DNA of 18,404 nt from a virus (IMGVR_UViG_3300029713_000154); one strand, 5' to 3'. Numbered from the stretch's first letter, positions 1,668-18,404 are shown. The notes: generated by a model from the sequence alone, not told the origin. Program-made: numbers and translations.

Positions 1668-1672
1668 GTAAC

Positions 1673-2464: not shown

Positions 2465-2480
2465 AGCCCGGCGTTATTTT
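2453..2480 (+). terminator. Rho-independent terminator of the SPFH-NTase operon
   Basis: Stem 2453-2460 CGCCGGGC / 2466-2473 GCCCGGCG with loop GTGAA, followed by TTATTTT. The TGA stop of the NTase gene lies in the hairpin, and the stop of the convergent minus-strand gene overlaps the T-tract. Confidence 0.6.
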
Positions 2481-2934: not shown

Positions 2935-3545
2935 GCTTGCCAGCCTGTTGAATAATCGTAGTCGAGCACCGCCTGAATATCGTCCAGAGCTTCCACCGCC
3001 GCGATATGGTGCTGGGCATTGGCGAACAGGCGCATATCGTGATCCATTGTTACCGATTCAAACTGGGCGGCGATCTCGTTGGTTAACTCGATCAGACCGT
3101 TATTTTTAGTTTTCCACATTAACCCTGGAGGGATTTTTTTCTCCGCTCCCATTTTTGTGAGTGAGAGCTGTTGGATACGGCTGTTTGTATCACTGTGGAA
3201 GTGATGGTTGTTGATGATGATGTAATCGGTTGTGACGTAATCCCGTTTGGATTTTATTCTTCTTATTATATCCGCTTTTATTTCTGAAATAAATTTAAGC
3301 ATTGAATCTGTATCAACTATCCATTCTCCTTTTTTTAGTTTGTGAAATCTATCTGGTGGTGGCGTAGAGATAAAGGATAAATCTTCACAGTTAATCCAAA
3401 TTGGGATATTAGCTTTCGCATATGTCTGCCATTGCTGATCAGTTATTTCAACTAAATGTTCTACTTTAGGATAGTTGTAGTGTTCTGTATCGATCCAGTC
3501 CAGAACGATAAATGTTTCAGGATCAAAACAAGCATATTTTGTCAT
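2931..3545 (-). CDS. Tail fibre assembly (chaperone) protein, Mu U / P2 gpG-like
   Basis: 204-aa ORF immediately downstream of the fibre gene. The N-terminal half is encoded in low-GC DNA contiguous with the fibre tip; the C-terminal half is higher GC. Confidence 0.7.
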   Translation of the reverse strand: MTKYACFDPETFIVLDWIDTEHYNYPKVEHLVEITDQQWQTYAKANIPIWINCEDLSFISTPPPDRFHKLKKGEWIVDTDSMLKFISEIKADIIRRIKSKRDYVTTDYIIINNHHFHSDTNSRIQQLSLTKMGAEKKIPPGLMWKTKNNGLIELTNEIAAQFESVTMDHDMRLFANAQHHIAAVEALDDIQAVLDYDYSTGWQA

Positions 3546-3551
3546 TTTTAA

Positions 3552-5378
3552 TTACCATGATATTTTTACGAAGCCAGAGGCACCTTTTGTTCCGCTAGTA
3601 TTGCCTAAATTTGTTAACTCATTATTTTTATATTGAAAAGGAGGTAAATAAGATCCCCCAGCTCCTCCAGAACCATAACCTGTTGCTGCTGTTGGCTTTG
3701 CCATTACTGCTTTTTTTCCACCATTACTTAGGTTTTCTGTAATAACAGTACCTGAAGCCCCTCCCTTTCCATATATAGAATTTTCACCATTCTTTCCAGG
3801 ATAAAATTCTGCAGATGACGGTATTGCATTTGGTGGAGTACCTTTAGGATCGTCACTGAATTTTATATAAGGCTGCGTAGTGTTAGAGTGATAAATGTTA
3901 TATCCTCCATGGCCACCTTTTGCAGTTAGATTAGAAAACGAAGAGTCTCCACCATCAAAGCTTTTTTGTGTTGTCTCTGTTTTATCATACGAATACTTTA
4001 TTTGTGAAACAGGTGGATTGTTCCAAAAAGGACCTCCATTACCTCCAGCTCCGATCTTTACTGAAAAATGCTGGCCTGGTGCCACGTTTAAGTAATCAAC
4101 AATCAATTCTCCTGCATTACCTCCGCAGGCTTCATAATGTGATGATTGTGCTCCTCCGGCCCCCCCACCTCCGCCGCCCATAATTTCCACAAATAATATT
4201 GTTACGCCCTCAGGAACTATAAATGTTCCATTTGTAGTATAAAAACTAGTGTGGGTATGATTAGCTGGAGCTGCAGTTTTTGCCTTATCCATTGCCGCCT
4301 TCACCGCGCTCGGTGTCGCCGCCTCCGTCGTACTGTTGCTATCCGTCGCGTTATTAAGCTTCACAATCCCTTTTTGCGACAGGGTGCCGTCTGGAACACC
4401 CGTAATCTGTCCCCATGGGTGAGTATGGTTTCCCGCAGCCTTACTATTCGCCAGGTCATATGCCGCCTTCACCGCGCTCGGTGTCGCCGCCTCCGTCGTA
4501 CTGTTGCTATTGGTCGCGTTATTAAGTTTCACAATCCCTTTTTGTGTCAGGGTACCGTCAGGAATACTCGTAATCTGCCCCCAGGGGTGCGTATGACTAC
4601 CCGCAGCCTTACTATTCGCCAGGTCATACGCCGCCTTCACTGCGCTCGGTGTCGCCGCCTCCGTCGTACTGTTGCTGTCTGTCGCGTTATTAAGCTTCAC
4701 AATCCCTTTTTGTGTCAGCGTACCATCTGGTATATCAGTAATCTGACTCCAGGTATGACGATGATTTCGAGCCTCAATCATTGCCGCTTTCACCGCTTTT
4801 GGCGTAGCCGCTTTGGTTTCGTCATCACTGTCAGTGGCGTTACTCAACTGTGTAAAGCCTTTTTGCGTTAACGTAGCATCAGGATGATTAGTCGAACGCT
4901 CATGTTCATCCAGTTGTGAATCAACATAATCCCGTGTTGCCAGTACAATACTGGGGTCAACGGTGAGTGTTACCGCAGTCGTGTTGGAAACTTCCATAAT
5001 CAGGCGAATGCAAACTTGCTTACCGCTGCCGCCGGGTAATAGTGGTTTATACGACTCCGGGAATTTACCGATAGCAATGAGTTCACCATCGGTATCAAAA
5101 ACGCCGACTTCACGTACATACCAGCCGCCGATATTTTCGGGCAGCACGAGTTCCGCAATTAACCAGTTAGGGTTATTGGGTGCAACTGTTAATGTATTTA
5201 AATCACCGCGCCATACTTCATGGCGTAATTTAGTTTGGCTGACGGTGGGTTCATAATATTGTCCTCCGCTGTCACCAACAGCCATTTTTTGTAGATGAAG
5301 CTGTTTTTTATCCGCCAGAGCATTGGCAATTTTTGCCATTCCCCTGTCGGTGAGTAGAGTATAAAACTCATTGTCCAT
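3552..5378 (-). CDS. Tail fibre protein (Mu S / P2 gpH-like) with internal ~56-aa repeats and a glycine-rich C-terminal receptor-binding region
   Basis: 608 aa. Repeated TLTQKGIVKLNNATDSNSTTEAATPSAVKAA units; C-terminal GGGGGGAGG and GAGGNGG stretches. ATG at 5378 with GGAG upstream; position between gpI and the fibre assembly gene. Confidence 0.85.
   Translation of the reverse strand: MDNEFYTLLTDRGMAKIANALADKKQLHLQKMAVGDSGGQYYEPTVSQTKLRHEVWRGDLNTLTVAPNNPNWLIAELVLPENIGGWYVREVGVFDTDGELIAIGKFPESYKPLLPGGSGKQVCIRLIMEVSNTTAVTLTVDPSIVLATRDYVDSQLDEHERSTNHPDATLTQKGFTQLSNATDSDDETKAATPKAVKAAMIEARNHRHTWSQITDIPDGTLTQKGIVKLNNATDSNSTTEAATPSAVKAAYDLANSKAAGSHTHPWGQITSIPDGTLTQKGIVKLNNATNSNSTTEAATPSAVKAAYDLANSKAAGNHTHPWGQITGVPDGTLSQKGIVKLNNATDSNSTTEAATPSAVKAAMDKAKTAAPANHTHTSFYTTNGTFIVPEGVTILFVEIMGGGGGGAGGAQSSHYEACGGNAGELIVDYLNVAPGQHFSVKIGAGGNGGPFWNNPPVSQIKYSYDKTETTQKSFDGGDSSFSNLTAKGGHGGYNIYHSNTTQPYIKFSDDPKGTPPNAIPSSAEFYPGKNGENSIYGKGGASGTVITENLSNGGKKAVMAKPTAATGYGSGGAGGSYLPPFQYKNNELTNLGNTSGTKGASGFVKISW
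4293..4900. repeat. Tandem in-frame 168-bp repeats (3 near-identical copies plus a divergent fourth) inside the tail fibre gene
   Basis: Copies begin at 4293, 4461 and 4629 (TGCCGCCTTCACCGCGCTCGGTGTCGCC...), with a degenerate copy from about 4797. Period 168 bp = 56 codons. Confidence 0.8.
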
Positions 5379-5380
5379 AA

Positions 5381-6013
5381 TTACTCCGGGTAAATAGATG
5401 TAATTTCAAGGCTCCATTGCCCTGTTCCGTAATAAATCGATGTGTTGTGCTGTACTTCCCGTATCTGGAAAGGTAAAACCGTCGTCAGTTCACCACCATA
5501 AAGTGCACAGCCAATAACAGGAATAGCACTTTGGTTAATGATCCAGACGATTAATGCTTCCAGTTTTGAACGTGTGTTTTTATATTCATGAATGAGTTCT
5601 ACCAAATCATTGAAAAGGTTTTCATCCAGGCCTTTATCCACCAGCGCTATATCCACCTTAAAAAAATAAGCCCTTCCCCCATATTCAAACCATTCTGAAA
5701 TAGTTCCTGGTAATGAGAGTATTTCCAGCACCCGCCGCACCGCCCAAATTGTTCCTTTATATTTATGCAGTTCAATGGCTTGTTTAATTAACTCGCGTTT
5801 CTCCCGCTCATCGGTGGTAAATAACCAACCTTCCAGCCCCTGAACGTGAAATTGTTCTGCAAGGGCTGGTAATGCCGAAGCATCAACCTGGTCGATCAGA
5901 TAAACCATCAACGCCGTCAGATCGAGTTGGGCAAAACGCTCGGCGGCGATATTTGCCAGAATCGAAAAACGCTCATCGCTGGCAAGCGGCGGCGGTGGCA
6001 GCAATTTATCCAT
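5381..6013 (-). CDS. Baseplate/tail protein gpI-like
   Basis: Track ORF 5381..6028 starts at TTG. ATG at 6013 (MDKLLPPP...) with GGAG upstream is the likelier start. Sits between the gpJ-like gene and the fibre gene. Confidence 0.75.
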   Translation of the reverse strand: MDKLLPPPPLASDERFSILANIAAERFAQLDLTALMVYLIDQVDASALPALAEQFHVQGLEGWLFTTDEREKRELIKQAIELHKYKGTIWAVRRVLEILSLPGTISEWFEYGGRAYFFKVDIALVDKGLDENLFNDLVELIHEYKNTRSKLEALIVWIINQSAIPVIGCALYGGELTTVLPFQIREVQHNTSIYYGTGQWSLEITSIYPE

Positions 6014-7121
6014 CGCTGACTCCGGCAATCGTGACGTCTATTGCGGTGCATTCCGCCCACTCATGCGCCTGCAAAATACGTTTTGTAGGCATATTCAGCG
6101 CAACGTCATAGACGCCATCGACCTGTAACACTTTGATTATCTGGTTTGGCACAATGTCCTGCCCCAGATGTTTCTGCCGCTGTTGCGTCCAGAGGCTAAT
6201 CGCTTTACGCGCTGCAGCCAGCGTTGTCTCCTGATCGGCGGTGGTAAACAGCGTTAGCTGCGCACGGATCTCATATGGCACTCGAAGAGCGCATTTCGCA
6301 CTCACTTTGTCGGTCAGCGGACGTTTTTTCTCCTTGCTAACCTCCTGTTCAATTTGCGCGAGCAGTTCTATTCCCGGCAGTCCGTTCAGAGTTAGCGGGT
6401 AGATCTCCACGCAGCCTTCTGGCAATCCCTCGTCCGGCCCCAGTACTGCAACGTCAATAATCGACTGGCTAACAGAAAGCGTATGAAAGCGGTAGGCACC
6501 ATAGCTGCCCGCATTACTAAAGCTTTCTGGTGCCAGTTGGATACGCTGGCGCAATGCGTCATCGCTCTCTTCACCGCAGCCGCCCGTTGACGCAGTCAGG
6601 TTGGTTACGTTGATGTCATAATGACCAATCCTGTCGACCAGTGCGCTAATTTGTGCAGGCTGCCAGCCGTTACCCTGTTCACCTGCTGCGAGGCTGGTGG
6701 CAGGAACGGCGATATGCAAACTCCTGGCCGGAAGCAGAACATCTTCATCGGTGGCGAACATCACGCTATCAGAGGCACTGGCCCGCGTTCCCTGGGGAAT
6801 CAGGATATTGCTGGTATACGCGCTGACGACCGAAAACTGCAACGTCGTTTTTGCCGGCTGCGCAGGCAAACGGTGAACGCCCACCAACTCCCCTAAATAA
6901 TCCAGCATTGGCGCGCGGGAATACGCGACCAGGTTCTGTTTCGCCGCTTCCTGAATGGCGATGCGTACAAGGTTTTCACGATAGGCAAACAGGTCGATGA
7001 GCAACCGCTCAGCCTGTGCCGGATAGAGTTTTTTACCGCTGGCATCTTCGTATTGCGCAATCATCTCACTGGTAATTTGCGCAGGATCGCGGTCAATAAA
7101 ATTGGGTTCGGCTATCGCCAT
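6006..7121 (-). CDS. Baseplate assembly protein gpJ-like (baseplate wedge)
   Basis: 371 aa. ATG at 7121 with GGAGGTG SD; overlaps the gpW-like gene by 10 nt. Synteny W-J-I-fibre. Confidence 0.8.
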   Translation of the reverse strand: MAIAEPNFIDRDPAQITSEMIAQYEDASGKKLYPAQAERLLIDLFAYRENLVRIAIQEAAKQNLVAYSRAPMLDYLGELVGVHRLPAQPAKTTLQFSVVSAYTSNILIPQGTRASASDSVMFATDEDVLLPARSLHIAVPATSLAAGEQGNGWQPAQISALVDRIGHYDINVTNLTASTGGCGEESDDALRQRIQLAPESFSNAGSYGAYRFHTLSVSQSIIDVAVLGPDEGLPEGCVEIYPLTLNGLPGIELLAQIEQEVSKEKKRPLTDKVSAKCALRVPYEIRAQLTLFTTADQETTLAAARKAISLWTQQRQKHLGQDIVPNQIIKVLQVDGVYDVALNMPTKRILQAHEWAECTAIDVTIAGVSDG

Positions 7122-7471
7122 AACACCTCCGTTGAGTTGATAACGCCGTCAGCGGCGCGCCATTGCACACGTAACGTCAGATGTTCGCCGTCGATTACTG
7201 GTGTCACCTTCAGCAACCGACAGCGCGGCTCCCACTGGCGGATGGCTTCCACCGACTCCCGTACCACATGCGGAATTGCCCGCTCGATGGGGTAATCGAT
7301 GTAGTGCCACAAGTTGCTGCCAAACAGCGGTCTGTGGGGATCACTGCCGCGCGGTGTGCGCAGAATGATGTGTATTGCCTGGTGAATATCATCCAGTCCG
7401 CAGACGTATTCTTCAGGCCGCTGCAAGGCCGGTTGCCAGTGCAGCGTTGAGGGTCGTGTTTTTGTGTTCAT
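7112..7471 (-). CDS. Baseplate protein gpW / gp25-like
   Basis: 119-aa ORF of typical gpW size, positioned between the spike and gpJ genes. Weak SD. Confidence 0.8.
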   Translation of the reverse strand: MNTKTRPSTLHWQPALQRPEEYVCGLDDIHQAIHIILRTPRGSDPHRPLFGSNLWHYIDYPIERAIPHVVRESVEAIRQWEPRCRLLKVTPVIDGEHLTLRVQWRAADGVINSTEVLWR

Positions 7472-7534
7472 GAGGGTATTTTCGCCCTGAACGGGCTGTG
7501 GCGATATTAAAGCGATTTAGAAAACTGATTGATT

Positions 7535-7564
7535 AAAAAGAGAAAACCCGCCATCAGGCGGGTT
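7535..7564 (-). terminator. Intrinsic-terminator-like hairpin between the gpV and gpW genes (minus-strand sense)
   Basis: Stem 7545-7552 AACCCGCC / 7557-7564 GGCGGGTT, loop ATCA. On the minus strand it is followed by UUCUCUUUUU, immediately after the gpV stop at 7570-7572. Confidence 0.4.
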
Positions 7565-7569
7565 AAACG

Positions 7570-8271
7570 TCAGTGTGTATGGTGGTTGGAGTTGCCACCG
7601 CTGTCCTGCAATGCGCCGCTGGCCTGAACGTTGCCGATCACGTTGACATTGCCAGTTATCGTGGCGGCGTTACCGATGCCTCCACTTCCTGCCATCCCGC
7701 CAAGCCAGGTGAGTTTTTTCATTACCGTGACATTGCCAGTAAAGGTGCTCATGGGCGCATCTACCGTCACTGCTGCCGCTTTAACATCGACCTTAGTGGC
7801 GTCGATGCTGACATCGGTCGCTTTAATATCGACGGTATCGGAAGTCACGGTGACCTGTTGGGCTTTAATCTCAACGTTGGGTGATGTCAGGCGGGTACTG
7901 TCGATAACCTCAATCACGATTTTCTCGATACCGCCGTTAATCGTCAGCTGGTGGGTGCTGCGGTCATATTCAAACGCTGCGCCATCAGAAAACTGGACGT
8001 AACGTTTATCGCGCGAGGCCACAGGCGCGGTGTCAACCGTAGAATAAACTGCGCCCAGCACCACGCCATCTTCACCGTTATTGTCCAGCAGAACTTCCAC
8101 TTGCTCGCCCATATCCGGTAGCCAGTAGTCTTTATTGTCCTGGGAATTGCGTTGAAGTACCGCAAGCCAGTTGCTCTTCAGATTGTCACACTCCGGAAGC
8201 GTGACTCGCACCCGAACGCTGGTTTCGTCAATATCGCTGATAATCCCCGTTTGACGGGTTACTCCTTTCAT
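7570..8271 (-). CDS. Baseplate central spike protein gpV-like
   Basis: 233 aa. N-terminal OB-fold-like region and a C-terminal repetitive beta-helix-like segment (VTVTSDTVDIKATDVSIDATKVDVKAAAVTVDA), Gly-rich tip. Strong SD AAGGAGG. Confidence 0.85.
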   Translation of the reverse strand: MKGVTRQTGIISDIDETSVRVRVTLPECDNLKSNWLAVLQRNSQDNKDYWLPDMGEQVEVLLDNNGEDGVVLGAVYSTVDTAPVASRDKRYVQFSDGAAFEYDRSTHQLTINGGIEKIVIEVIDSTRLTSPNVEIKAQQVTVTSDTVDIKATDVSIDATKVDVKAAAVTVDAPMSTFTGNVTVMKKLTWLGGMAGSGGIGNAATITGNVNVIGNVQASGALQDSGGNSNHHTH

Positions 8272-8280
8272 ATTTCCTCC

Positions 8281-9321
8281 TTACTGGCTGGTCGCTGGCC
8301 CGCGTGACACGTCGATTTCAGTGGTATAGCCGCTGCGCACAAAACTGTGAGTCGATTTATCAATCAGCCACTGACCGGAAAGCACGCCAAAATCGGTCAG
8401 TTCAATTTTATTGCCCGCCGTCAGTTCCGGGCAGCCCATCATCCTGAGCGTTCCGGTTTGTTGATATTCGTTGTGGCTGTCGAGCGCGGCGTTGGCCTTT
8501 GCCTGTGCCGCGCCAACGTCCGGCGCCCGACTGTTCAGTTTTAGCGTGTCGGCACTGGTGCCGACTCCACGGGTAGACGGTTTTTGCTGGCTGTCGTGGG
8601 TGTAGATAACCAGTTCTTTTTTCTTACTATTTTGATGCTGTACGGTGGCATTTTTGTAGATACGGTTAATGGTATCTTTGAAGGTGAAATGCGAAACGTC
8701 TTTGCGGTCGATCGTTTTTACCGGCGCCAGGCAGCGCAGCGTGGGTAAATGCGAAAAAATCAGTTCTTTGGTGGTCACCTTTACCGCATAGCCATATTCG
8801 CTGGCCAGGCGCTTGAGAAATCCGACATCGGTTTCACCATACTGCGTTACCCGGTCGATGGTGAGCGGCTCGATTTTGCCCACCAGTTTCAGACCGTGCG
8901 TTTGGGCGATACGGCTGGCGATAGCCGAAAGCGTCGTTTCTTCAAAGCCCTGGCTGTTACGGGTACGCAGCGCCTGATTGACGGAAGTGGCGATGCCATC
9001 AATATTTACCGTAGAAGGTGGCGCTGAAATATCAATTTTATCAATAATATACTGACCACAATCGAGCAGCTTTTCCCCCTGATAACCCATATGCAGCGCC
9101 AGCGTATCGCCTTTGCCGGGATACCACTCTTTTATCCAGCGTCCATCGGTGTCATCCAGTGTAATCGCGATGGTATCTGACTCGTTTTTGATGCTGTCGT
9201 GGTAACTGATGCTGGTGACATAGGGTGTGATGTCATAAGTGATATCTTTATGCCCATACCAGAGGGTAAAAATGGGCGTGAGTGTGGCAAAGACGCCACC
9301 AGTTACGCTTATCTCAGCCAT
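8281..9321 (-). CDS. Baseplate hub protein, P2 gpD / Mu gpP-like
   Basis: 346 aa, typical gpD size; position X-D-V; GGAGA SD. Confidence 0.8.
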   Translation of the reverse strand: MAEISVTGGVFATLTPIFTLWYGHKDITYDITPYVTSISYHDSIKNESDTIAITLDDTDGRWIKEWYPGKGDTLALHMGYQGEKLLDCGQYIIDKIDISAPPSTVNIDGIATSVNQALRTRNSQGFEETTLSAIASRIAQTHGLKLVGKIEPLTIDRVTQYGETDVGFLKRLASEYGYAVKVTTKELIFSHLPTLRCLAPVKTIDRKDVSHFTFKDTINRIYKNATVQHQNSKKKELVIYTHDSQQKPSTRGVGTSADTLKLNSRAPDVGAAQAKANAALDSHNEYQQTGTLRMMGCPELTAGNKIELTDFGVLSGQWLIDKSTHSFVRSGYTTEIDVSRGPATSQ

Positions 9322-9518
9322 GGTGGGATCTCCGATAAGGTTTTATTGACGGAAATGACCGGAATAATGAGCTGAATACCGGAAGGCAGTACCGGGTAAA
9401 TGGCGACATGTGGATTGGCGACGATTATGCGTTCATAAGCCAGCGCATCACCGTAGTAATGCCATGCCAGATTATCCCAGCGTTCGCCGTCGGTGGTGAT
9501 ATGTTCAAGGTATCGCAT
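9309..9518 (-). CDS. Tail protein X (gpX, LysM-like)
   Basis: About 69 aa with the pattern YxxDxLDxIAxxYYG...ANP...LPxGxxLxIP typical of P2 gpX. The track starts at GTG 9521; ATG 9518 shares a base with the upstream TGA. Confidence 0.75.
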   Translation of the reverse strand: MRYLEHITTDGERWDNLAWHYYGDALAYERIIVANPHVAIYPVLPSGIQLIIPVISVNKTLSEIPPWLR

Positions 9519-10471
9519 CACCAGATCCTCGTAATGGTCGCGGCAGCAAGCTGGCTCACTGTGGGAGTGGTTTGTTGTACCGTTGTTCGTGCCTGATCAA
9601 CCAACGTTGCGGCTTTATCAAACGTCGCTTCGGCGATGTCGCTGGTAATGTCGTCGAAAAGCGCCTGAGCATGGTCAACCAGTGTACTGGCGTCATTGGC
9701 GCAGTCCCGGATACCTGGCATGTTACCCAGTAAAGTTTTAATCTGCGCCGACAACGCTTTTGGGAGTCCTGCCAGCGTTTGCAGATCCATTGGCTGTTTA
9801 AACAGGGTTTCGATGGCGTCGATTGTCTTTTTCAATGACGTAATTATCTTTTCACACTTTTCTTTTAACACTTTGGCCTCTTTAATCATTGCTTTCACTT
9901 TTGCCACCGTTTTTTTAATATCTTCAATGGCTTGTGTCAGTTCATCCAGCATCTCTTTGGCCTTACGCATACCTTCTTCGATGGCGTTTAATATCTGATC
10001 AAACCAGGACTCCACCATGTCGGGAAAATCGCTCGCCTTTTCCTCAATGTTAGGCTCCTGGGTGGTAATCGCCGGAGGTAAAAGTGGATTTTTAGGATCG
10101 CCGGTGTACTCCTGGAGCGACATCGTTCCGTTTTGGGCAATCACATTGCCCCAGGGATCGGTGTGCTGGTGGGTGGCGGTTAGCTCCGTAATTACAAACC
10201 AGCCGCGATAATCGCCATTGCCAAATACCAGTGCCATCGCCTTGTGAGCAAGCATGGCTTCACGCAGTCGATTAAGCTCTGTTGTGGGCTGGCAAAACTG
10301 GCTGTGCAGGGAAAATTCCAGCGCCAGCATATCCAGCTTATCGCCAATAAACTGCACACCGGGTTTGCCTTCTATACGGGCATGTGTGGCGTAATCCACG
10401 CCCATTGTGCTTTTAAAGCCGTCCCAGAATGCGACAACCTTAAATTCAATCTCTCCTAAAACGGCATACAT
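9518..10471 (-). CDS. Tail protein with gpU / Mu-N-like N-terminal domain and a C-terminal coiled-coil extension
   Basis: 317 aa. The N-terminus MYAVLGEIEFKV resembles the gpU start. The C-terminal ~170 aa is Lys/Glu/Ala-rich heptad-like sequence. Lies between the tape measure and gpX genes. Confidence 0.6.
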   Translation of the reverse strand: MYAVLGEIEFKVVAFWDGFKSTMGVDYATHARIEGKPGVQFIGDKLDMLALEFSLHSQFCQPTTELNRLREAMLAHKAMALVFGNGDYRGWFVITELTATHQHTDPWGNVIAQNGTMSLQEYTGDPKNPLLPPAITTQEPNIEEKASDFPDMVESWFDQILNAIEEGMRKAKEMLDELTQAIEDIKKTVAKVKAMIKEAKVLKEKCEKIITSLKKTIDAIETLFKQPMDLQTLAGLPKALSAQIKTLLGNMPGIRDCANDASTLVDHAQALFDDITSDIAEATFDKAATLVDQARTTVQQTTPTVSQLAAATITRIW

Positions 10472-12846
10472 CAGGCATACCCCCGGCGCTGTTGTTGCGC
10501 CATTACGTCGTTAATCATTCTTTCAAGTTCGCGTTTACTCATCGTCAACACGTTCTGAATCTCTTTAGTGGTGTTTTGTCCGTTACCCTGCACGGTAATC
10601 TGTGGCGAAAAATTCACCTGAACTTTTCCAGAGGAACGGGAAGGTAGCGTCGCCGGTTTGGTTACGGATTTACCAGGTAAAGAGGCCAATGCGGGTTTGG
10701 CGGCTGTATTTTTTGCCGCAGGTGCCGATGGCGGCGTTGTCGTTTTACTGGATGGCGCGAGTTGTTTCCCCACCGGAGGCGTTAAAATCGCACCGGCAAC
10801 GCCTGGAACAACGCTCGCGGGGGAGACGGATGCGGTATTAGTCGTGCTTGTAATAGCTGTAGCCGATCCTTCTGTACTAATACCCATCGTGGTTTTTAGC
10901 CAGTCTGGGATGACGTTTTTGACCTGATCAATAATGCCTTTCAGAGCGGGGAAGGCATTCATTATGCCGTCGGCCAGGCTAGCCAGAAGATTGCTGCCGA
11001 ACTCGCTAAAACTCGCAGGCATTTCAACACCAAACCAATTCATCACACTGGAAAAGGCGCTATAGAACAACTCCAGCGGCGACCAGTCGAGAATTAACCG
11101 ACAAATTTCTGCAATGCCGCCGTCAAAGGCCGTGGTGATACGTTGCCAGATGGTAGAAAAGAACCTGGAGATAGGCTCCCAGTTGCGATAAATCAGATAA
11201 GCAGCGCCCGCAATCGCAGTGATGACCAGACCAATGGGATTCATCAATAAAACCCTACCCAACCAGAAGACGGTCTGACCTGCCTGTTTCAGTGCGCCAA
11301 TCAGGCCACGACCAAGCAGTTGCGTTAGCCATTTTGCACCGCCACCCAATGACTTAACCGCTGATAGCATCTTACTTGCCCCGCCTGTGAGTGCCAGACT
11401 TGCCCTGACTTTCAGGAAGATATCGACCAGACGAATAAACGGCGAGGCGATGAAGTTCGCGCCCAGTTTTAAAACATTCAGCGCGCCGTTAAACAGCCAA
11501 ATCGCCCCGACGATTTTCGCAATGTTTTGCACCAGTGCCGGGTGCTCACGTAGCCAGGCGCTGAACTGGCGAACAACCGGCGTAAGGCTTTGTGCCAGCT
11601 CGCCAATCAGCGGCATTAATTGCAAGCCAATGCTGAGCCATAAATCATTTAACGCCAGCTGTAACGCTTTAGTCTGTTCAATGGGCGAGGCCATTTGCGC
11701 AGAAAAGTCGGCATCAATCAGATTCTTGCTGCTGGCTTGCATGGCAGAGGCTTTTAACTGGCGATATTCCTCCATATTCGCCAGCATAGGTGCCAGGAAT
11801 TCCACAGTTTGCGCATCGCCGAACATTTCGCCCAGATTAAATTGCGTCACCATCGATTGCAGCGCATTGCTGCGAGCAGATAAATCTTCAATCTGCATAG
11901 TGCGTTTGAAGGTGCCGAGGATCGCCGGATTCATCTTCTCAAGCTGCATTTGCACGATATGAGTCATGGCTTCGCTAACACCCATACCGTTTTGCTGATG
12001 CTCAAGCAGAGAGCCTTGCAGATCAACGCCCTGGCTGGCGAACCAGTTATCGGTTTTTTTCGAAAAGGTGGTTTGCAGAAAGTGGTCGAAATTCTCCGCC
12101 GCCGCACTGGCGCTGGCCCCGTTTTTCATGGCGATCTGCATGATGGCGGTCAGTTCAGCCATACCTTCCAGACCCTGAGCGCCGGTTTTACCTGCAAATT
12201 TCTCTATCCACTGCGTTTGTTCGGCAACGGCAGGCCCACCGCTTTTGCTAATGCCATACATCATGTTTTGCGTGGCGTGGAAATTTTCCGGGGCAATATT
12301 CAATCGATCATGAGTCGCGAGCGCGGCATTCGCCCACGTTTCAGCACTTTCGCGCGTGGCGGTGGCAGCTTTGGCGATCTCCGGCATATAACGGTTGAGA
12401 TCCTGCATCGACGACAAATTGCCTTCGATCAGCGTTTGGGCTGCGTTCTGTAAGGTGGTCTGCTGCTGGTTAAAATCCATGCTCCAGTCGCGCAGATTAA
12501 GGCTGAGCGTCTCGCGGGTTGTAGCATTCATCCCACCTTTGGTCGCCATATTGACCATGTTGTCCTGGAACTCATATGGCAACTTCCAGTCGGGGGCTTC
12601 AACATTGAATACCTTGCTAAATTGCCCGGCAAATGTTTGGGTTTTCTCCATTAGATCAGCGCGGTTCCGGCTATTTTCCTCCAGGCGGAGAGCAGAATCG
12701 GCAAGTTGCTGCGTTAGTTTGATTACTGTCGCTTGCTGAGAAGAGAGAGCTAACAAAGTTCTGGCGTTGAGTGAGCCGTAACGGGCTATTGCCTGCGTCA
12801 ACGTCTCATTACGCGCCTGAAGCTGGGTAATAATATCGTTGGCCAA
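10471..12846 (-). CDS. Tail tape measure protein
   Basis: 791 aa, Ala/Gln-rich helical N-terminal half with a central hydrophobic segment; position after the chaperone gene. Apparent TTG start at 12846 with AAGAG upstream. Confidence 0.85.
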   Translation of the reverse strand: MANDIITQLQARNETLTQAIARYGSLNARTLLALSSQQATVIKLTQQLADSALRLEENSRNRADLMEKTQTFAGQFSKVFNVEAPDWKLPYEFQDNMVNMATKGGMNATTRETLSLNLRDWSMDFNQQQTTLQNAAQTLIEGNLSSMQDLNRYMPEIAKAATATRESAETWANAALATHDRLNIAPENFHATQNMMYGISKSGGPAVAEQTQWIEKFAGKTGAQGLEGMAELTAIMQIAMKNGASASAAAENFDHFLQTTFSKKTDNWFASQGVDLQGSLLEHQQNGMGVSEAMTHIVQMQLEKMNPAILGTFKRTMQIEDLSARSNALQSMVTQFNLGEMFGDAQTVEFLAPMLANMEEYRQLKASAMQASSKNLIDADFSAQMASPIEQTKALQLALNDLWLSIGLQLMPLIGELAQSLTPVVRQFSAWLREHPALVQNIAKIVGAIWLFNGALNVLKLGANFIASPFIRLVDIFLKVRASLALTGGASKMLSAVKSLGGGAKWLTQLLGRGLIGALKQAGQTVFWLGRVLLMNPIGLVITAIAGAAYLIYRNWEPISRFFSTIWQRITTAFDGGIAEICRLILDWSPLELFYSAFSSVMNWFGVEMPASFSEFGSNLLASLADGIMNAFPALKGIIDQVKNVIPDWLKTTMGISTEGSATAITSTTNTASVSPASVVPGVAGAILTPPVGKQLAPSSKTTTPPSAPAAKNTAAKPALASLPGKSVTKPATLPSRSSGKVQVNFSPQITVQGNGQNTTKEIQNVLTMSKRELERMINDVMAQQQRRGYA

Positions 12847-13035
12847 AATTGTTTCTCTTTAATTATTGATAATGGCCCACTGGTTATTTTTCTAAAAAAG
12901 GGGCTGGGAAGAAATAAACCTGGCGGGCTTTGAAGAACTCGCAGACATCAGGTCTGCGAGCCATATTCGATCTTTATTTGGTCGCTGGCTTCATCCAGCC
13001 AGTTGCTAAAGTCATCTATGGTGAGCGCGTCTATC

Positions 13036-13353
13036 TCACTGGGTGGAAAGCGAAACCATCTCGCCAGTAGCGCCATTGCCTGCCATAGCTGGGGAGGATT
13101 CTGTAACCACGGTAAGCATGGATTGAAATCGTTTCTGCAATGCCTGGTAATCCAGCAAATCCATTTCAGCTAAATCTTCTGGCACCAGTCCGGTCATCGC
13201 CGCCATTAGCGGTTCATCCCACTCTTCGGGTTTTTCGCTGATCCGGCGCGCGTTGCGCATATCTTTTACTTTCAGGCGACGTAATTGCAGCGAGTCGATA
13301 GTATTTCCTGCTGCCGACGTAAATGGGAACTGTAAGATATAATGCTCTTTCAT
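13036..13353 (-). CDS. Tail assembly chaperone (gpE-like)
   Basis: 105-aa acidic protein between the tube and tape measure genes. No second frameshift-partner ORF is apparent. Confidence 0.55.
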   Translation of the reverse strand: MKEHYILQFPFTSAAGNTIDSLQLRRLKVKDMRNARRISEKPEEWDEPLMAAMTGLVPEDLAEMDLLDYQALQKRFQSMLTVVTESSPAMAGNGATGEMVSLSTQ

Positions 13354-13403
13354 TTTGTATCCTTATTTATGTTGCGAAGTTCGGGGCCGTAGCCCCGAAT
13401 AAT

Positions 13404-13928
13404 TTAGCCACCGATGTTATTGCGATAGGTACTTAATTGATCCACGCCGTTAACCCGAAAAATATTCGCCATATAATCAAGTTCAAGCAGCGTTTCACCA
13501 TCGACCACTTGTTTAATATAAGTACAACCAAAGGCGCTGCTGAATTCCGGGTTTTCATTCTGTTTAAATGTGCCCAAGGGATTCTTTTTAAACATCACGG
13601 TTAAATGTGTCACTAACGCTAATTGATTCGCTTTCCCCTGGGAGTTATAGCAATCAATACTGGAGCGGCACTGTAATGCTACTGCCTGCCACGGGTTTGC
13701 CGTTTTACGCATTACGTCCTGATAAAAGGAGTTCCATTTAATTTCCCCCTCCAGTTTATCGAAACCAGCCGGGAGTTCGATTTTACCGACCATACCCAGT
13801 GCTTTATGCTCTTGCATAATTAAACTGACATCCGGCAATTTAATTTCGGTTGCACGACCTAAAAGATTATTACCATCGAGATAAATATTGGCGTTGGTAA
13901 TACGGTTAATTTGAATTTTTCCAGCCAT
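13404..13928 (-). CDS. Tail tube protein (P2 FII / Mu M-like)
   Basis: 174 aa; start ATG overlaps the sheath stop (TAATG). Confidence 0.85.
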   Translation of the reverse strand: MAGKIQINRITNANIYLDGNNLLGRATEIKLPDVSLIMQEHKALGMVGKIELPAGFDKLEGEIKWNSFYQDVMRKTANPWQAVALQCRSSIDCYNSQGKANQLALVTHLTVMFKKNPLGTFKQNENPEFSSAFGCTYIKQVVDGETLLELDYMANIFRVNGVDQLSTYRNNIGG

Positions 13929-15352
13929 TAGCTATTGCTCTCCAGAGAGACTAAATATTCAGAAGTAATTTCAGTTTCAAACGTCAGACGTTCCAGCGGC
14001 GGCGGCGGGGTGAATTTATAGCTAAGCAATAAATGCCCGGCGCTGAGTTCAGCCGGTGAATTTCGCGCCGGATCGTACCAGCACTCAAAGCCAAGCAGTG
14101 CGCCGTCGGCAATCAGTTTTCGGCCCCAGGTATTTACCGATTCGGTCAGCGCGTCAATAAGAGCCTGATTAATCGGCATATCAATATACTGCTGACTGAA
14201 ATAACGGATTGACTCATTAATTACATCGCCTGTCCGGCGAACGTTTTCAAAGTTACGCATATGGGTCACGGTAGGCCATGCCGCTGTGCGGTTGCCCCAC
14301 AAGCGCAGACCAGAACCGTAACTATTGAAAATAGTGGTAATGCCGTTTTCGTTGAGCTGATTCACTTCGCTTTGTGGATCATCAATCATTGCAGAAAGCG
14401 AACGTTCAATACCGGTAATACCCTGAATTTCCTGGTTTGAGTTGCTCCACCAGAAACCTTTTTCGAGGTCTACTTTGGCACGTAGCCCGGCAGCGCGCGA
14501 AGAGAGTGGTTCGAGAACTTCCTGGTTAGTGATGCCATCGTAAACTTTGACGTGTGGGTAACATAAACGCACACGATCAGAGCTGGTATTGAAGTTGATA
14601 GCCCCTTGCGAACCGCGTCCAGCCAATACCTGCTGGAATGTCGTCCCAATCGGAGCATCAATGTAGGTAAGCGCACCGAGTTTTTCCGCTTGTGCAATCA
14701 GCTCAGTAGTTACTGATTTTTGCGTACAAAACACGGGAGCAAGCAGGATTTTGGCGTAGAAACCGTACAGGTTATAGGTGTCCTGAAGGAGTTTCATCCC
14801 CGTGCGGTCGCCTGCGGTATTTACGGCACCGATAATATCGGCTGCGGTGACCTTTGTAGGGTCGCACCAGGAATAATAGGCGCAAACTTTCGCACCAGGA
14901 GGAATGTCGGCTCCTTTACGGGTAATTATGCCTGTTTGTTCATCTACGCTAAATGCTGCGGTGTTAAAGGTTGATGAATTTGATGAAGAGGGCTTTAGTA
15001 CCACGTTACGCACATTGCGGTGAGCGAGCTTCGCCTGGTTGTTAGCGTCAAAAGTGATACTCTCATTGCTGATGTTGGAGCCATGTTTTGCCGGATCCAG
15101 CACGTTAATCACCACCACCGTACCGGCACCGTGGTCATAAATCGCCTTCAGTGCCTGTGGGATCGTAAAGTTAGCCTGAGTCGAGCCAAACTGCGCAGCA
15201 TCGCTTTCAGAAAGGCATAATGTTGGTTTATTTACCGGACCGCAGGGGGCCGTACCGATTAAAGCGATGACGGCGGATTTTACCGCTTTAACCGGACGCG
15301 GGCCGGTTTCAATTTCAATGGTTTCTACACCGTGCAGGTAATTAGCTGCCAT
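13928..15352 (-). CDS. Contractile tail sheath protein (P2 FI / Mu L-like)
   Basis: About 474 aa. The track begins at TTG 15358; ATG 15352 with GAGGA SD is the likelier start. Size and position are typical of a sheath gene. Confidence 0.9.
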   Translation of the reverse strand: MAANYLHGVETIEIETGPRPVKAVKSAVIALIGTAPCGPVNKPTLCLSESDAAQFGSTQANFTIPQALKAIYDHGAGTVVVINVLDPAKHGSNISNESITFDANNQAKLAHRNVRNVVLKPSSSNSSTFNTAAFSVDEQTGIITRKGADIPPGAKVCAYYSWCDPTKVTAADIIGAVNTAGDRTGMKLLQDTYNLYGFYAKILLAPVFCTQKSVTTELIAQAEKLGALTYIDAPIGTTFQQVLAGRGSQGAINFNTSSDRVRLCYPHVKVYDGITNQEVLEPLSSRAAGLRAKVDLEKGFWWSNSNQEIQGITGIERSLSAMIDDPQSEVNQLNENGITTIFNSYGSGLRLWGNRTAAWPTVTHMRNFENVRRTGDVINESIRYFSQQYIDMPINQALIDALTESVNTWGRKLIADGALLGFECWYDPARNSPAELSAGHLLLSYKFTPPPPLERLTFETEITSEYLVSLESNS

Positions 15353-15539
15353 GTACAATTTCCTCTACGTTATTTTGTTCTTCCTGAGTGATGACAGGAG
15401 TCAGATGATTGCGGGCAATCATGGTCATGACCCACTCGTTGTCTTCTGGCAGATCAATTTCACTGTTCGGCCACAATAAGATTTCTTGTCCATCGGCAAG
15501 GGTGACGCCGCTTGCCGGGCCGTTGTAGATGTATTTCAT
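15342..15539 (-). CDS. Small tail-associated protein (65 aa), function unknown
   Basis: ATGA-type coupling to the upstream gene; overlaps the sheath start. Conserved position immediately upstream of the sheath gene. Confidence 0.45.
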   Translation of the reverse strand: MKYIYNGPASGVTLADGQEILLWPNSEIDLPEDNEWVMTMIARNHLTPVITQEEQNNVEEIVHGS

Positions 15540-15991
15540 TCAGTTTCCTCGTAGTTAACTTCCGTAAGCAGGGGAAGATCCGTGCTTTCCTGTTCAGCGA
15601 TAAACAGCGAGCTGGTCGCCATTTCCAGGATGTAGCGGCAGAAACCGCCGCTCTCACCCGTATTAATTTCTTTTTCAAGCCAAAGCAGACGATCGCAATC
15701 AGGAAGCTGAAGGCCGCCCAATGCGCTGCGTATGCAATCAAGTGCGTTTAACGCGTCACAATTTTTGTCAACAATAACGGTGGCGGTTAAGCGGAGTATT
15801 TGCTGTTGCACGATGGCATCACTGCTTTCGGGTGTGGTAAAGACAGAACCGCTATAATTAATAATCACTGCAACTTGTTGTGTCTGTGGAATATATTTCT
15901 GGGCATCCGTAGATGAAATAAATATATCCATTTCAGGATGCCGATCACGTAATTTGACCATGACATAATTCATTGCAGATAAAATTTTCAT
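15536..15991 (-). CDS. Putative tail completion / terminator-like protein (151 aa); first gene of the tail operon
   Basis: ATG at 15991 with AAGGT upstream; first ORF after the terminator that ends the lysis cassette. Function inferred from position only. Confidence 0.45.
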   Translation of the reverse strand: MKILSAMNYVMVKLRDRHPEMDIFISSTDAQKYIPQTQQVAVIINYSGSVFTTPESSDAIVQQQILRLTATVIVDKNCDALNALDCIRSALGGLQLPDCDRLLWLEKEINTGESGGFCRYILEMATSSLFIAEQESTDLPLLTEVNYEETE

Positions 15992-16046
15992 ATGAGGTGT
16001 ACCTTAATTACCGCTCACTTCGTTATCGTTGAGATGTATTATGAAG

Positions 16047-16091
16047 CAGTGAAGGTGAAGAATCTTTTAATGTGATTTAGAGAAAAAATTG
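16047..16091 (-). promoter_or_regulatory. Candidate activator-dependent late promoter element upstream of the tail operon
   Basis: 45-nt block shared with the lysis-operon upstream region at 17406-17450; sense strand CNATTTTTT-N28-CTTCACTG at identical spacing. Confidence 0.35.
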
Positions 16092-16100: not shown

Positions 16101-16133
16101 AAAAAATCCCCACACTTACGTAAAGGTGGGGAT
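16101..16133 (-). terminator. Rho-independent terminator after the lysis cassette
   Basis: Stem 16106-16113 ATCCCCAC / 16126-16133 GTGGGGAT, followed on the minus strand by UUUUUU. Lies 5 nt after the spanin-like gene stop. Confidence 0.55.
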
Positions 16134-16137: not shown

Positions 16138-16452
16138 TTAATAACTGCCACGTTGTAACAGCTCGATTTTGCTATATAAGGCATCCAGCTTTGCTTCTAA
16201 TACTGCTTGCCCACGAAGATAATCTTCTCTGCGGACATAATGCAGCGGAAGCTCGGCACGAAATTCAAGAAACTCTCTTTCCAGTTTCGACCAACTTGTT
16301 TCTGATTCCCTGCGGGCATTTTCCAGAGACTCAAAACGCTCATTAAGTCGTTTTTCAATTTGCGCTAACAGCAGTTTTCCGGCAGCAAACATTAATCCAA
16401 CGAAGGAAAGCATAAGGGAGATCACTTCCCAAAAATCGATACTGAGTTTCAT
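16138..16452 (-). CDS. Putative i-spanin (Rz-like): N-terminal transmembrane segment plus coiled coil
   Basis: 104 aa. Hydrophobic residues 8-26, then charged heptad-like sequence. Directly downstream of the endolysin gene; GAGGGG SD. Confidence 0.5.
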   Translation of the reverse strand: MKLSIDFWEVISLMLSFVGLMFAAGKLLLAQIEKRLNERFESLENARRESETSWSKLEREFLEFRAELPLHYVRREDYLRGQAVLEAKLDALYSKIELLQRGSY

Positions 16453-16464
16453 CGGCCCCTCTGA

Positions 16465-17070
16465 TTAGTGAAGACAGCTTGCCTGTCCCCAGAGTAAATA
16501 GCGGGCAGCGTGTTGATAGAGAATCATCTTTGGATAGCGACGATTTTCTCGCCAGTTCGCGGCGCTGCGCCCGGCGTTGACTTGCTCGACATGACCAAAC
16601 CAGCGAGTGGCATCTAACCCTTTGGATGCAGCCAGTTTTTTATCCCGGTTAACCCACCCCTGACCGCCGTTATAGGCGCTTAGGGTAAACGCCATACGCT
16701 GACAGTCATTTTGCGCAGAGATGTTTTTCCACAAATGCTGGTCATATTGCACCAGCGCGCGAATCGCCCAGGTTGGGTTATACGGTTTGTTTTCACGCAA
16801 TTGTGGATACAACTGGCTTATCCATGTCGCAGTAGCAGGCATAAATTGCGCCATACCTTGTGCGCCAACGGGGGAACGTACCATTGGCTGCCAGGCGGAC
16901 TCCTGGTGTAATTGCCCGGCAAAGTCGGCCACTGGGGCATTCAGCCCCCAGACTTCTCGAGCTGTACGAATTAGTTCGTTTCGCCATGCCAGAGAGGCTC
17001 GCGGCGGTTCAGAGGCGTTAAGCGGGAAAAGAACGAAAATAATCATAGACGCGATATATTTCAGCCACAT
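16465..17070 (-). CDS. Endolysin, SLT-domain lytic transglycosylase with N-terminal signal or SAR sequence
   Basis: SLT family-1 motifs (HQESAWQP, GAQGMAQFMP, AYNGG). Likely start is ATG 17070 (MWLKYIASMIIFVLFPLNA). The track extension to 17148 overlaps the holin gene in another frame and is discounted. Confidence 0.8.
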   Translation of the reverse strand: MWLKYIASMIIFVLFPLNASEPPRASLAWRNELIRTAREVWGLNAPVADFAGQLHQESAWQPMVRSPVGAQGMAQFMPATATWISQLYPQLRENKPYNPTWAIRALVQYDQHLWKNISAQNDCQRMAFTLSAYNGGQGWVNRDKKLAASKGLDATRWFGHVEQVNAGRSAANWRENRRYPKMILYQHAARYLLWGQASCLH

Positions 17071-17072
17071 CA

Positions 17073-17360
17073 CTATAGCCCTAAGGCGACGGAAAGACAG
17101 ACGGCGGCAACGATGATGGCGCGGCGAATCATTGCCGCCGCGCAGCAACGCGGTTCCTTCCAGGGGCTAAAAGAGTCAGGCCGTGCCCAGGGGAACAAAC
17201 TGCGATCGAGCCAGTATCCCAGAACCGCGGAAAGCGAAACCAGGCTTAGTTTATAAATGACGACCGGGATCTGTGCTGAAGAGGTCCAGCCGATCACGAC
17301 AAACAGCGCGACGGAAGCGACCAGCCAGCCGGAAAGCCGGGGAAAAGTGACTTTTTTCAT
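17073..17360 (-). CDS. Holin or pinholin-like small membrane protein
   Basis: 95 aa with 2-3 hydrophobic segments; strong AGGAGA SD; immediately upstream of the endolysin gene. Confidence 0.5.
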   Translation of the reverse strand: MKKVTFPRLSGWLVASVALFVVIGWTSSAQIPVVIYKLSLVSLSAVLGYWLDRSLFPWARPDSFSPWKEPRCCAAAMIRRAIIVAAVCLSVALGL

Positions 17361-17405
17361 ACGATATCTCCTGATAAGTGAGCGTTTAGTGTCGTCAGAA
17401 CCCGC

Positions 17406-17450
17406 CAGTGAAGAATGAAAAAAGCTTTAATAAATAAGTTTAAAAAATAG
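17406..17450 (-). promoter_or_regulatory. Candidate activator-dependent late promoter element upstream of the lysis operon
   Basis: Same bipartite motif as 16047-16091; it ends about 45 nt upstream of the holin ATG. Confidence 0.35.
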
Positions 17451-17656
17451 ATTCTCTATAAATGAACATGCCCGCTAATAAATCGACTCAGCAATTAAAG
17501 AGCAAACGGTGACCTGGCGAATAAGCGCGTCATTATGCAGGGAAAAGATGATGGTGGATCGTAGGAATAGTCGATAGTTATTTGATTTTTAAAGTTTGTT
17601 TAAGAAAGTCAGCGACTGTGAGGGAAACGATCTTTTTACACTACAGGTAAAAATAA

Positions 17657-17676
17657 TACTGTATGTGCATACAGTA
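17657..17676. promoter_or_regulatory. LexA (SOS) box
   Basis: TACTGTATGTGCATACAGTA matches the consensus TACTG-(TA)5-CAGTA at all ten flanking positions, with a CTGT-N8-ACAG core. Lies in the 535-bp AT-rich divergent regulatory region, upstream of a TAAAAT -10-like hexamer (17682-17687) and a TTGACA (17698-17703). Confidence 0.6.
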
Positions 17677-17896
17677 TCGTGTAAAATGATACTCCTGTTG
17701 ACAAGAAACATAACACAAACAATATATTTATTTAGTGAATTTATGCGTACATTAATATTAAGAATTTATATTTCTGGTGATTGTTTATTTGTTTGTTGAA
17801 TGTATTGAGTAGCAGTAATGACAACTGCTTAGCGTATATCCGTGGTTTTACACGCATCGGGTCTTATTCAGGATGCAAGATATATGGAGATGAAAA

Positions 17897-18238
17897 ATGA
17901 TACGAAAATCAAAAGAGATGGCCCGGACACCGGAGATCATTAACGACCTGGCTTTTCATGCATCGCAAGTTCTGATTGAAAGCATCAATCTCGACAGTTC
18001 ATCGGCAGAAAATGTGGGTTTTGCCATTGCCGACCGAATGATGCGTAACTGGGGCGGACAAAGCATTTATTTCCCTAAGGGGATCTCCGGACGAGCATCG
18101 GAGCGTGACTACCAAATCTATAGCGAGTGCGATGGGCGCAACTACGCCGAATTAGCGAAGAAATATAATCTGACGCTGCAATGGATTTATAAGATAGTCA
18201 AACGTGTACATACGGAGAAGCAGCAGAGTCGTATGTAG
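17897..18238 (+). CDS. Mor/C-family transcriptional activator (Mu middle/late operon regulator-like)
   Basis: 113 aa. C-terminal helix-turn-helix-like region (YAELAKKYNLTLQWIYKIVKR) typical of Mor/C proteins; GGAG SD. Divergent from the lysis and tail operons. Confidence 0.75.
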   Translation: MIRKSKEMARTPEIINDLAFHASQVLIESINLDSSSAENVGFAIADRMMRNWGGQSIYFPKGISGRASERDYQIYSECDGRNYAELAKKYNLTLQWIYKIVKRVHTEKQQSRM

Positions 18239-18299
18239 TGGTGATTGCACCGACATGGCGAGTAGCGATATGGGGTCGCAACTCGCCTGTACTGGTCGT

Positions 18300-18404
18300 T
18301 TACTCAAACAAATTACTATGCAGTTTTTGCACCACCTGCTCGGCATCTTCGCCGGGCACCAGGAAGCACAGGTTATGGCTGGATGCGCCGTAACAAATCA
18401 TGCG
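18300..18404 (-). CDS. lysC: Aspartokinase III, 3' end (partial, continues beyond the window)
   Basis: Minus-strand translation of 18303-18404 gives RMICYGASSHNLCFLVPGEDAEQVVQKLHSNLFE followed by TAA, matching the LysC C-terminus as remembered for Escherichia. Confidence 0.85.
   Translation of the reverse strand, partial: RMICYGASSHNLCFLVPGEDAEQVVQKLHSNLFE

Follow-up and report, generated by a model that had tools for sequence, protein, structure and literature searches.

A LexA box upstream of a Mor-family activator probably places an enterobacterial tailocin candidate under host SOS control

DNA damage probably triggers a phage-derived contractile-tail island of Escherichia coli and related enterics through host LexA instead of through a phage repressor. 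In the window (the whole stretch of DNA analysed here, 18,404 nt), a near-consensus LexA box precedes the gene for a Mor/C-family late activator, and comparison of this region across orthologous islands leads us to a model in which LexA would directly gate mor, and Mor would then activate the late operons of a domesticated phage remnant. We put the probability of this full model at about 0.6. Its new part is a host LexA operator that, judged from sequence, seems to replace a dedicated repressor ahead of a Mor-type tailocin activator; in the literature, we found neither an account of the island nor one of a LexA box placed ahead of such an activator.

Results

Gene content and origin of the island

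The island spans ~18 kb between yjbD and lysC (strain EC9), occurs in about 3.5% of complete E. coli genomes, and is absent from K-12. Of 5426 complete E. coli genomes, 186 contain the whole of the window's right end (17300-18404), and the others match its lysC part only. From left to right, the island comprises genes for a slipin/SPFH protein and an RlaP-family nucleotidyltransferase (plus strand), a tail block and a lysis cassette (both minus strand), a 536-bp gap, and mor (plus strand):

Positions 2479-15991, minus strand: contractile tail module, assigned from Pfam and PHROG matches and annotation, with a sheath 71-75% identical to those of Bcepmuvirus phages.
Positions 16138-17360, minus strand: lysis cassette, with genes for a membrane protein/lipoprotein (16138-16452), an SLT-type endolysin (16465-17070) and a holin (17073-17360).
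Positions 17897-18238, plus strand: mor, encoding a Mor/C-family late transcription activator of 113 aa (Pfam PF08765, PHROG 532).

The tail block runs, left to right, through fibre-assembly genes, fibre, I, J, W, V, D, X, U-like, tape measure, chaperone, tube, sheath, a small gene and gp37. This complete contractile tail set and the lysis cassette have all their genes annotated as intact in the window strain and its close relatives. The phages that share the sheath at 71-75% identity are BcepMu, phiE255, Klebsiella KP12 and Escherichia PhiKM. Mor covers 103 of the 107 profile positions of PF08765 (E=2.2e-37), matches PHROG 532, "late transcriptional activator", and is 44-48% identical to the late activators of Bcepmuvirus (48% to BcepMu gp01); its phiE255 homologue is annotated as "DNA-binding protein RdgB".

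Complete phage relatives possess capsid, packaging, replication/transposition and integration genes, none of which lies between yjbD and lysC, and Pfam and PHROG scans of the island returned no capsid, terminase, transposase, integrase or repressor. The initial annotation had proposed that the element works with no phage repressor, and within the island this holds: the yjbD-lysC island encodes only slipin, nucleotidyltransferase, tail, lysis and Mor proteins, and an HTH repressor gene, with or without an S24 peptidase domain, is absent from it. In BcepMu, the activator gene gp01 closes a leftward early operon that is divergent from the cI/Cro-type repressor gene gp17, after which come the lysis cassette, head genes, gp37 and tail genes in order. 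On this comparison of gene content, the island is a remnant of a BcepMu-like transposable phage that has lost its repressor, its head genes and all early/transposition genes except mor. The gene content left after these losses is that of an R-type tailocin, and we refer to the island as an R-type tailocin candidate.

The slipin/SPFH and RlaP-family nucleotidyltransferase genes (window 540-2464, plus strand) overlap by 4 nt, on the other strand from the tail genes; the two could be cargo or could form a defence pair.

A near-consensus LexA box in the gap upstream of mor

The gap between the holin gene and mor contains the following site:

Positions 17657-17676, no strand assigned: LexA (SOS) operator TACTGTATGTGCATACAGTA, called from consensus match, matrix score and conservation in orthologues.

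As the initial annotation had stated, TACTGTATGTGCATACAGTA is found there, identical to TACTG(TA)5CAGTA at 17 of 20 positions, and it matches the SOS consensus at all flanking positions, since the 3 mismatches all fall within the central (TA)n. The CTG-N10-CAG palindrome is unbroken, with CTGT and ACAG both intact. Across the 18.4-kb window, this is the sole match to the consensus with three or fewer mismatches, and none of 200 dinucleotide-preserving shuffles of the window gave any such match. Scoring with a LexA position weight matrix (symmetrised, from 28 E. coli operators, its absolute values being approximate) bore the box out at 23.5 bits and a heterology index of 4.3, which ranks it in the top third among the 28 training operators; the second-best 20-mer of the window reached 12.4 bits. 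The box stands one base apart from the recA operator TACTGTATGAGCATACAGTA (position 10, A to T), which was checked through a 102-nt recA promoter sequence, identical copies of which precede recA in 5422 E. coli genomes.

The box lies 240 bp from the mor ATG, upstream of the Mor/C-type activator as had been described, and 297 bp from the holin ATG, in line with the ~300 bp given earlier for the leftward lysis operon. A distance of 240 bp is long, yet it has a precedent in tisB, which stands at 236 bp in a LexA-box table (PMC8072944).

Conservation of the box across orthologous islands

We compared the region upstream of mor across orthologous islands from one-genome-per-species contigs (Dryocola, Phytobacter, two Superficieibacter), a Salmonella Infantis contig, whose genes carry cross-references to STM4212-STM4219, and 26 IMG/VR contigs (13-17 kb). 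In 24 of the 27 distinct mor-upstream regions, a LexA box occupies the corresponding position, with box-bearing islands in E. coli, Salmonella, Phytobacter, Dryocola and Superficieibacter and a spacing to the mor ATG of 239-264 bp (311 bp in one). These 24 loci carry 16 box variants, all of which have a heterology index of at most 7.1 and score inside the range of real operators on the matrix used above, whose values are approximate.

T6, T8, A13 and A15 are constant in all 16 variants; the constancy of CTG and CAG arises partly by construction, from the search pattern CTG-N10-CAG, which does not apply to these four positions. Changes cluster at positions 1, 2, 9-12 and 19, the low-information positions of the LexA motif, and variability along the box correlates with the LexA information profile (Spearman 0.70, p=6e-4). 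Perfect pyrimidine-purine alternation runs through the box centre in 12 of the 16 variants, and the intergenic DNA around the box is far less conserved, with many indels. In this alignment, the conservation of the box together with its substitution pattern is the footprint expected for a site maintained for LexA, which upholds the operator link drawn in the initial annotation, and we consider it very likely that the site is a functional LexA operator to which LexA would bind.

The palindrome might instead be a chance repeat, the operator of another repressor, or a weak minus-strand terminator hairpin before UUAUUUUU. The minus-strand RNA folds at -9.7 kcal/mol (z = -2.7) ahead of a U-rich run, and orthologues commonly have an A-rich tract to the left of the box. 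However, the substitutions track the LexA information profile rather than stem pairing, the central changes are uncompensated, the stem is AT-rich, and a terminator scan made no call. For the other variants of this explanation, the palindrome is a single base from the recA operator, and the island encodes no other candidate repressor. We therefore regard a non-LexA origin of the palindrome as highly improbable; the hairpin reading, weak in itself and contradicted by the substitution pattern, was set aside.

Upstream of mor in 43 Pasteurellaceae Mu-like loci (Mor 45% identical), no site reaches 14 bits, and no convincing box exists anywhere in the complete phages PhiKM and BcepMu, whose best sites (13.1 and 11.4 bits) are both intragenic. 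Among the loci and phages compared, the LexA box is thus restricted to tail-only islands. The three box-less regions of the 27 (L042, L046 and L047) also lack the adjacent TGTAAAATG (region ~250-330 bp upstream of mor at 4001); their Mor proteins are 89-91% identical, and they keep block 3, described below, and a holin promoter of the same layout.

Allelic variation and insertions at the box

The segment around the box (window 17560-17760) is unusually diverse within E. coli, with 41 genomes at 99% identity or above, 106 at 95-99% and 50 at 90-95%. Close E. coli alleles differ chiefly in the four central bases of the box (GTGC, ACAC, ACGT, GTGT, ATGT, GCAC), and these changes are almost always transitions that preserve the pyrimidine-purine alternation.

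A partial match only at the box region is seen in 11 of 197 island-bearing E. coli genomes. The exact centre of the box (corresponding to window 17663-17670) is interrupted by different ISL3-family elements in two E. coli strains, AR_0013 (L160, about 2597-4520) and CREC-544 (L161, about 2597-3950). One element is ISEc53, which carries a ClbS/DfsB passenger gene, and the other is ISKox3; their orientations are opposite, and each insertion is flanked by an 8-bp target duplication of box positions 7-14 (ATGTACAT and ATGTGTAT). CREC-544 has a frameshifted sheath gene besides the insertion in the box.

Two Salmonella loci (L020 and L021) have lost the tail/lysis cluster together with the LexA box and still carry mor beside lysC; the new neighbour of mor in these loci is a hexapeptide-repeat (acetyltransferase-like) gene.

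Candidate promoters overlapping the box

Three candidate promoters overlap the box:

Positions 17660-17687, plus strand: candidate rightward (mor) promoter, with -35 TGTATG in the box, a 16-nt spacer and -10 TAAAAT (17682-17687).
Positions 17658-17685, minus strand: candidate leftward promoter, with -35 TTTACA (17685-17680), a 16-nt spacer and -10 TACAGT (17663-17658).
Positions 17635-17662, plus strand: second rightward candidate, TTTACA-16-TACTGT, whose -10 falls within the left box half (8 of 12 consensus positions).

The first of these matches the consensus at 7-8 of 12 positions across orthologues, its -35 reading TGTATG in the window and TGTATA in most orthologues, and the 9-mer TGTAAAATG (17680-17688) is conserved directly right of the box. 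The TTTACA-16-TACTGT candidate is confined to E. coli-type sequences (the window, L025 and L029). LexA on the box would mask the -35 and spacer of the mor candidate and the -10 and spacer of the leftward candidate; these two overlap completely, and LexA would be predicted to block both.

One explanation that we weighed is that the operator chiefly represses the leftward TTTACA-16-TACAGT, with mor transcribed from another promoter, or that both divergent promoters are co-repressed. LexA would then directly control a transcript toward the holin, lysis and tail genes, or a leftward regulatory RNA, and the initial annotation had likewise raised an action on the leftward lysis side. The leftward candidate matches 9 of 12 consensus positions and is the sole hit of a sigma-70 consensus scan, a scan that carries no statistical weight because it gave fewer hits than shuffles did, and both of its hexamers are present in 20 of the 24 box-bearing unique loci. 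These hexamers, however, lie in a LexA half-site and over the rightward -10, so that their conservation does not discriminate between the two promoters.

The rightward promoter with -10 TAAAAT is most likely the target of LexA, for four reasons. Conservation reaches the A, T and G beyond TGTAAA, which are required by TAAAAT alone. A separate conserved promoter-like block lies 30-90 bp upstream of the holin gene, and the DNA between it and the box is variable and rich in indels. If SOS acted directly on lysis, before tails are assembled, the system would defeat itself. Finally, nalidixic acid induces the mor homologue of S. Typhimurium but not its lysis and tail genes (PMC8072944). We accordingly rate predominantly leftward or two-way repression as unlikely. 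A further argument, that the box keeps a fixed distance from mor and a floating one from the holin gene, was dropped, the two spreads being similar (sd 14.6 vs 16.9 bp).

Probable late promoters of the tail and lysis operons

Outside the box, we identified conserved elements in the intergenic regions and at a baseplate gene:

Positions 16038-16085, minus strand: late promoter P_gp37, TTTCTCTAAATCACATTAAAAGA followed by CATAAT 31 nt after TAAAT, with the BcepMu-group late-promoter motif.
Positions 16101-16131, minus strand: intrinsic terminator-like hairpin CCCCAC...GTGGGG with a T run, after the lysis cassette, read from the sequence.
Positions 7478-7525, minus strand: putative late promoter before baseplate gene V, GTTTTCTAAATCGCTTTAATA followed by GAAAAT 31 nt after TAAAT, a weaker match.
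Positions 17388-17449, minus strand: P_lys, a conserved promoter-like block upstream of the holin gene, ATTTTTTAAAC/GTTATTTATTAAAG, a putative promoter.
Positions 17582-17637, plus strand: block 3 (TTGATTTTTAAAGTTTGTTTAAGAAAG ... GTGAGGGAAACGATCTTTTT), a conserved block 20-75 bp left of the box.
Positions 17694-17896, plus strand: AT-rich leader (69% A+T) from the box-proximal promoter to the mor start, with a ribosome-binding site.

Upstream of gp37, all genera share TTTTCTCTAAA(G/T)CA(G/C)ATTAAAAGA, 20 unconserved bases and a CAnAAT hexamer located 31 nt downstream of TAAA(G/T). The late-promoter motif of the BcepMu group is TAAAG-N3-ATTAAAAGA with a -10 hexamer 31 nt after TAAAG. In BcepMu (63% GC), it occurs exactly twice, once ahead of the holin gene and once ahead of the head protease gene, each copy reading TAAAGCCGATTAAAAGAC with a -10-like hexamer 31 nt after TAAAG, and in PhiKM it occurs once, before the head genes. 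With the hexamer taken as the -10, the conserved site lies at about -34 to -57, and there is no -35 hexamer; the Mor- and C-dependent promoters of phage Mu have the same layout, with an upstream site and no -35 hexamer. This comparison provides good evidence for a Mor-type late promoter that continues to drive the tail operon. A hairpin like that at 16101-16131 is found in most orthologues, with the gp37 promoter motif standing after it. The leader of the gp37 operon (window 15992-16037 and orthologues) contains a conserved GAACGATAACGAAG(T/A)GAG element.

The other sites depart further from the motif. The gene V site reads TCTAAATCGCTTTAATA, 31 nt, GAAAAT, and stands after a terminator-like hairpin (about 7535-7564). 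P_lys consists of ATTAAAG, 31 nt, then GACACT (GATACT in other genera), which we infer to be a diverged form of the late-promoter layout. Block 3 looks like a late-promoter site whose spacer is longer by one base, with ACGAT 31 nt after TAAAG, and is kept in both box-bearing and box-less islands; in Salmonella, its hexamer is AGCGAT, a poor -10. A matrix built on the gp37 promoters did not recover the holin, gene V and block 3 sites above shuffle level, and for this reason we call only P_gp37 canonical. The idea of one Mor-binding motif for all four conserved intergenic blocks was rejected, as the matrix fails outside gp37. With the looser pattern T.TAAA[GT]-N31-.A...T, we obtained 5 hits where 1.6 were expected (p about 0.02); 3 of the 5 are intergenic and in the correct orientation.

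The leader of mor holds a conserved TGAATGTATTG (17797-17807). In the intergenic region, we found no Rfam match at E<=1 and no conserved small ORFs. The initial annotation had called the cascade simple; given the further conserved intergenic elements, it is probably less simple than that.

In Salmonella Infantis (L019, about 4330-4370, equivalent to about window 17610-17645), three GATC (Dam) sites within ~35 bp adjoin the box on its left (GCGATCGTGAGGAAAGCGATCTTTTTGATCG). This stretch has three such sites in Salmonella-type sequences, two in Phytobacter and one in E. coli. Dam-sensitive control exists at the mom promoter of Mu, of which the clustered GATC sites left of the Salmonella box are reminiscent.

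Response to DNA damage in S. Typhimurium

To relate these predictions to expression, we turned to the RNA-seq study of Merida-Floriano et al., in which S. Typhimurium 14028 was grown with or without nalidixic acid (PMC8072944). The mor homologue STM14_5073 is up 4.08-fold with the drug; at 348 nt, on the plus strand and described as "putative cytoplasmic protein", it fits STM4219 in size and description (PMC8072944 Dataset S1). The up-regulated list, which we covered in full, contains no other STM14_505x-507x gene and no "sheath" or "baseplate" gene (PMC8072944 Dataset S1). Because ~1,100 genes rose in this experiment (PMC8072944), the 4-fold rise of mor is not specific for LexA. The LexA-box table of the authors does not include STM14_5073, although their method should detect a 19/20 match within 400 bp (PMC8072944). 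The commonest Salmonella Mor allele is the allele of the box-bearing Salmonella loci.

In that strain and under those conditions, mor thus responds to DNA damage and the late genes do not, so that these data do not bear out the activator step, which may need more than Mor. Each link of the chain put forward in the initial annotation, from LexA through the activator to the late operons, is nevertheless backed by comparison. For the link from activator to late operon, this backing comes from the BcepMu-group motif before the gp37-sheath operon; the uninduced late genes of S. Typhimurium speak against it.

These data also bear on the possibility that LexA gates mor but that no working tailocin results, either because Mor is kept for another role, such as host-gene regulation by analogy with RdgB for pectin lyase in Pectobacterium, or because the element is decaying. 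The flat late genes would fit such a scenario, as would the Salmonella that retain mor beside lysC with the whole tail cluster lost, and the E. coli with an insertion sequence in the box and a frameshifted sheath gene. On the other side, the tail, lysis and mor genes are all annotated as intact in the window strain and close relatives, the late promoter of the tail operon is conserved across genera, and the tail-less Salmonella variants have lost the LexA box too. We judge this scenario decidedly unlikely and favour a functional element, in which Mor would drive the late promoters and particles would be produced.

Discussion

Our favoured model can be laid out as follows. The ancestral phage would have had an early operon that ended in the gene for a Mor/C-type activator and was silenced by the phage's own cI/Cro-type repressor. 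In the island, with the repressor, transposition and head genes gone, mor would stand directly behind a promoter overlapped by the LexA box. In an undamaged cell, a LexA dimer on the box would block RNA polymerase at the overlapping core promoter; upon DNA damage, activated RecA would stimulate LexA self-cleavage, and mor would be transcribed through the ~200-nt AT-rich leader. Mor would then activate promoters that lack a -35 hexamer, namely the diverged one of the holin-endolysin genes, the canonical one of gp37-sheath-tube, and possibly the baseplate one, and the cell would assemble tails and lyse.

A more elaborate version, which we hold to be possible but doubtful, is that the LexA box gates a self-amplifying Mor switch whose box centre is an ISL3 target for disarming. 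Block 3 would then be a Mor-dependent promoter reading into mor, so that after release of LexA, Mor would amplify its own production and drive part of the population into tail assembly and lysis, and LexA bound downstream of the block-3 start site would keep the loop locked. Independently of this loop, insertion of ISL3-family elements at the pyrimidine-purine operator centre would be a recurrent way to disarm a suicidal element.

Related circuits are known. In the Rdg system of Pectobacterium (RecA-RdgA-RdgB), DNA damage likewise leads through a Mor-family activator to a Mu-type tailocin and lysis, a course of events that for the island is proposed from sequence. The Rdg circuit controls pectin lyase, carotovoricin and lysis. 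Liu et al. in 1994 reportedly described RdgA as a RecA-sensitive repressor, a dedicated protein encoded elsewhere; the island, by contrast, has a host LexA operator before its activator and no RdgA-like gene within it. The likeness of RdgB to the window Mor is drawn through the annotation of the phiE255 homologue. Carotovoricin is said, after work by Yamada et al. in 2006, to be related to a prophage of Salmonella Typhi. It is a Mu-type tailocin whose cluster is without a repressor of its own (PMC13566846).

For the R- and F-pyocins, in which the SOS-sensitive PrtR blocks the activator PrtN and PrtN turns on the tail and lysis genes, the likeness drawn in the initial annotation holds at the activator step and fails at the repressor, since pyocins use their own, PrtR (PMC10598620). 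The two-step repressor-activator circuit is like the one that we propose for the island, but PrtR is a locus-encoded LexA-like protein and PrtN is not of the Mor family, whereas the repressor of the island is apparently host LexA. In colicin operons, host LexA binds an SOS box in the promoter that drives the suicidal release of a bacteriocin, acting directly on the toxin/lysis operon, often at two overlapping boxes and with no intermediate activator. The colicin comparison made earlier is apt for direct LexA control; the island differs in having a single box, upstream of an activator gene.

The Mor and C cascade of Mu and BcepMu shares with the island the activator family, the late-promoter motif and layout, and homologous lysis and tail genes; in the phages, however, mor ends an early operon under a phage repressor (BcepMu gp17), with no LexA box. 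LexA boxes at a key lytic promoter put GIL01, CTXphi, tum of coliphage 186 and the Gifsy antirepressors under host SOS control. These are complete phages in which LexA controls an antirepressor or acts beside a phage repressor or corepressor, whereas the LexA target of the island would be the Mor-type activator of a head-less element. In Gifsy, dinI-type genes are listed as LexA-regulated (PMC8072944).

Tailocins attract study both as precision antibacterials and for their part in driving competition among strains, and how a cell decides to sacrifice itself through them is an open question (PMC12090994). The R-type tailocin candidate described here apparently has been uncharacterised in the E. 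coli genomes that carry it, and the model predicts that SOS-inducing antibiotics would trigger its release; as K-12 is without the island, the circuit can be rebuilt there from parts. Known tailocin circuits rely on a locus-specific repressor, be it PrtR, RdgA or a cI-like protein, and in E. coli, Salmonella and related enterics, a Mu-type element seems to wire a single late activator to the host SOS repressor. If true, this would be a compact and genetically tractable case of host capture of phage regulation.
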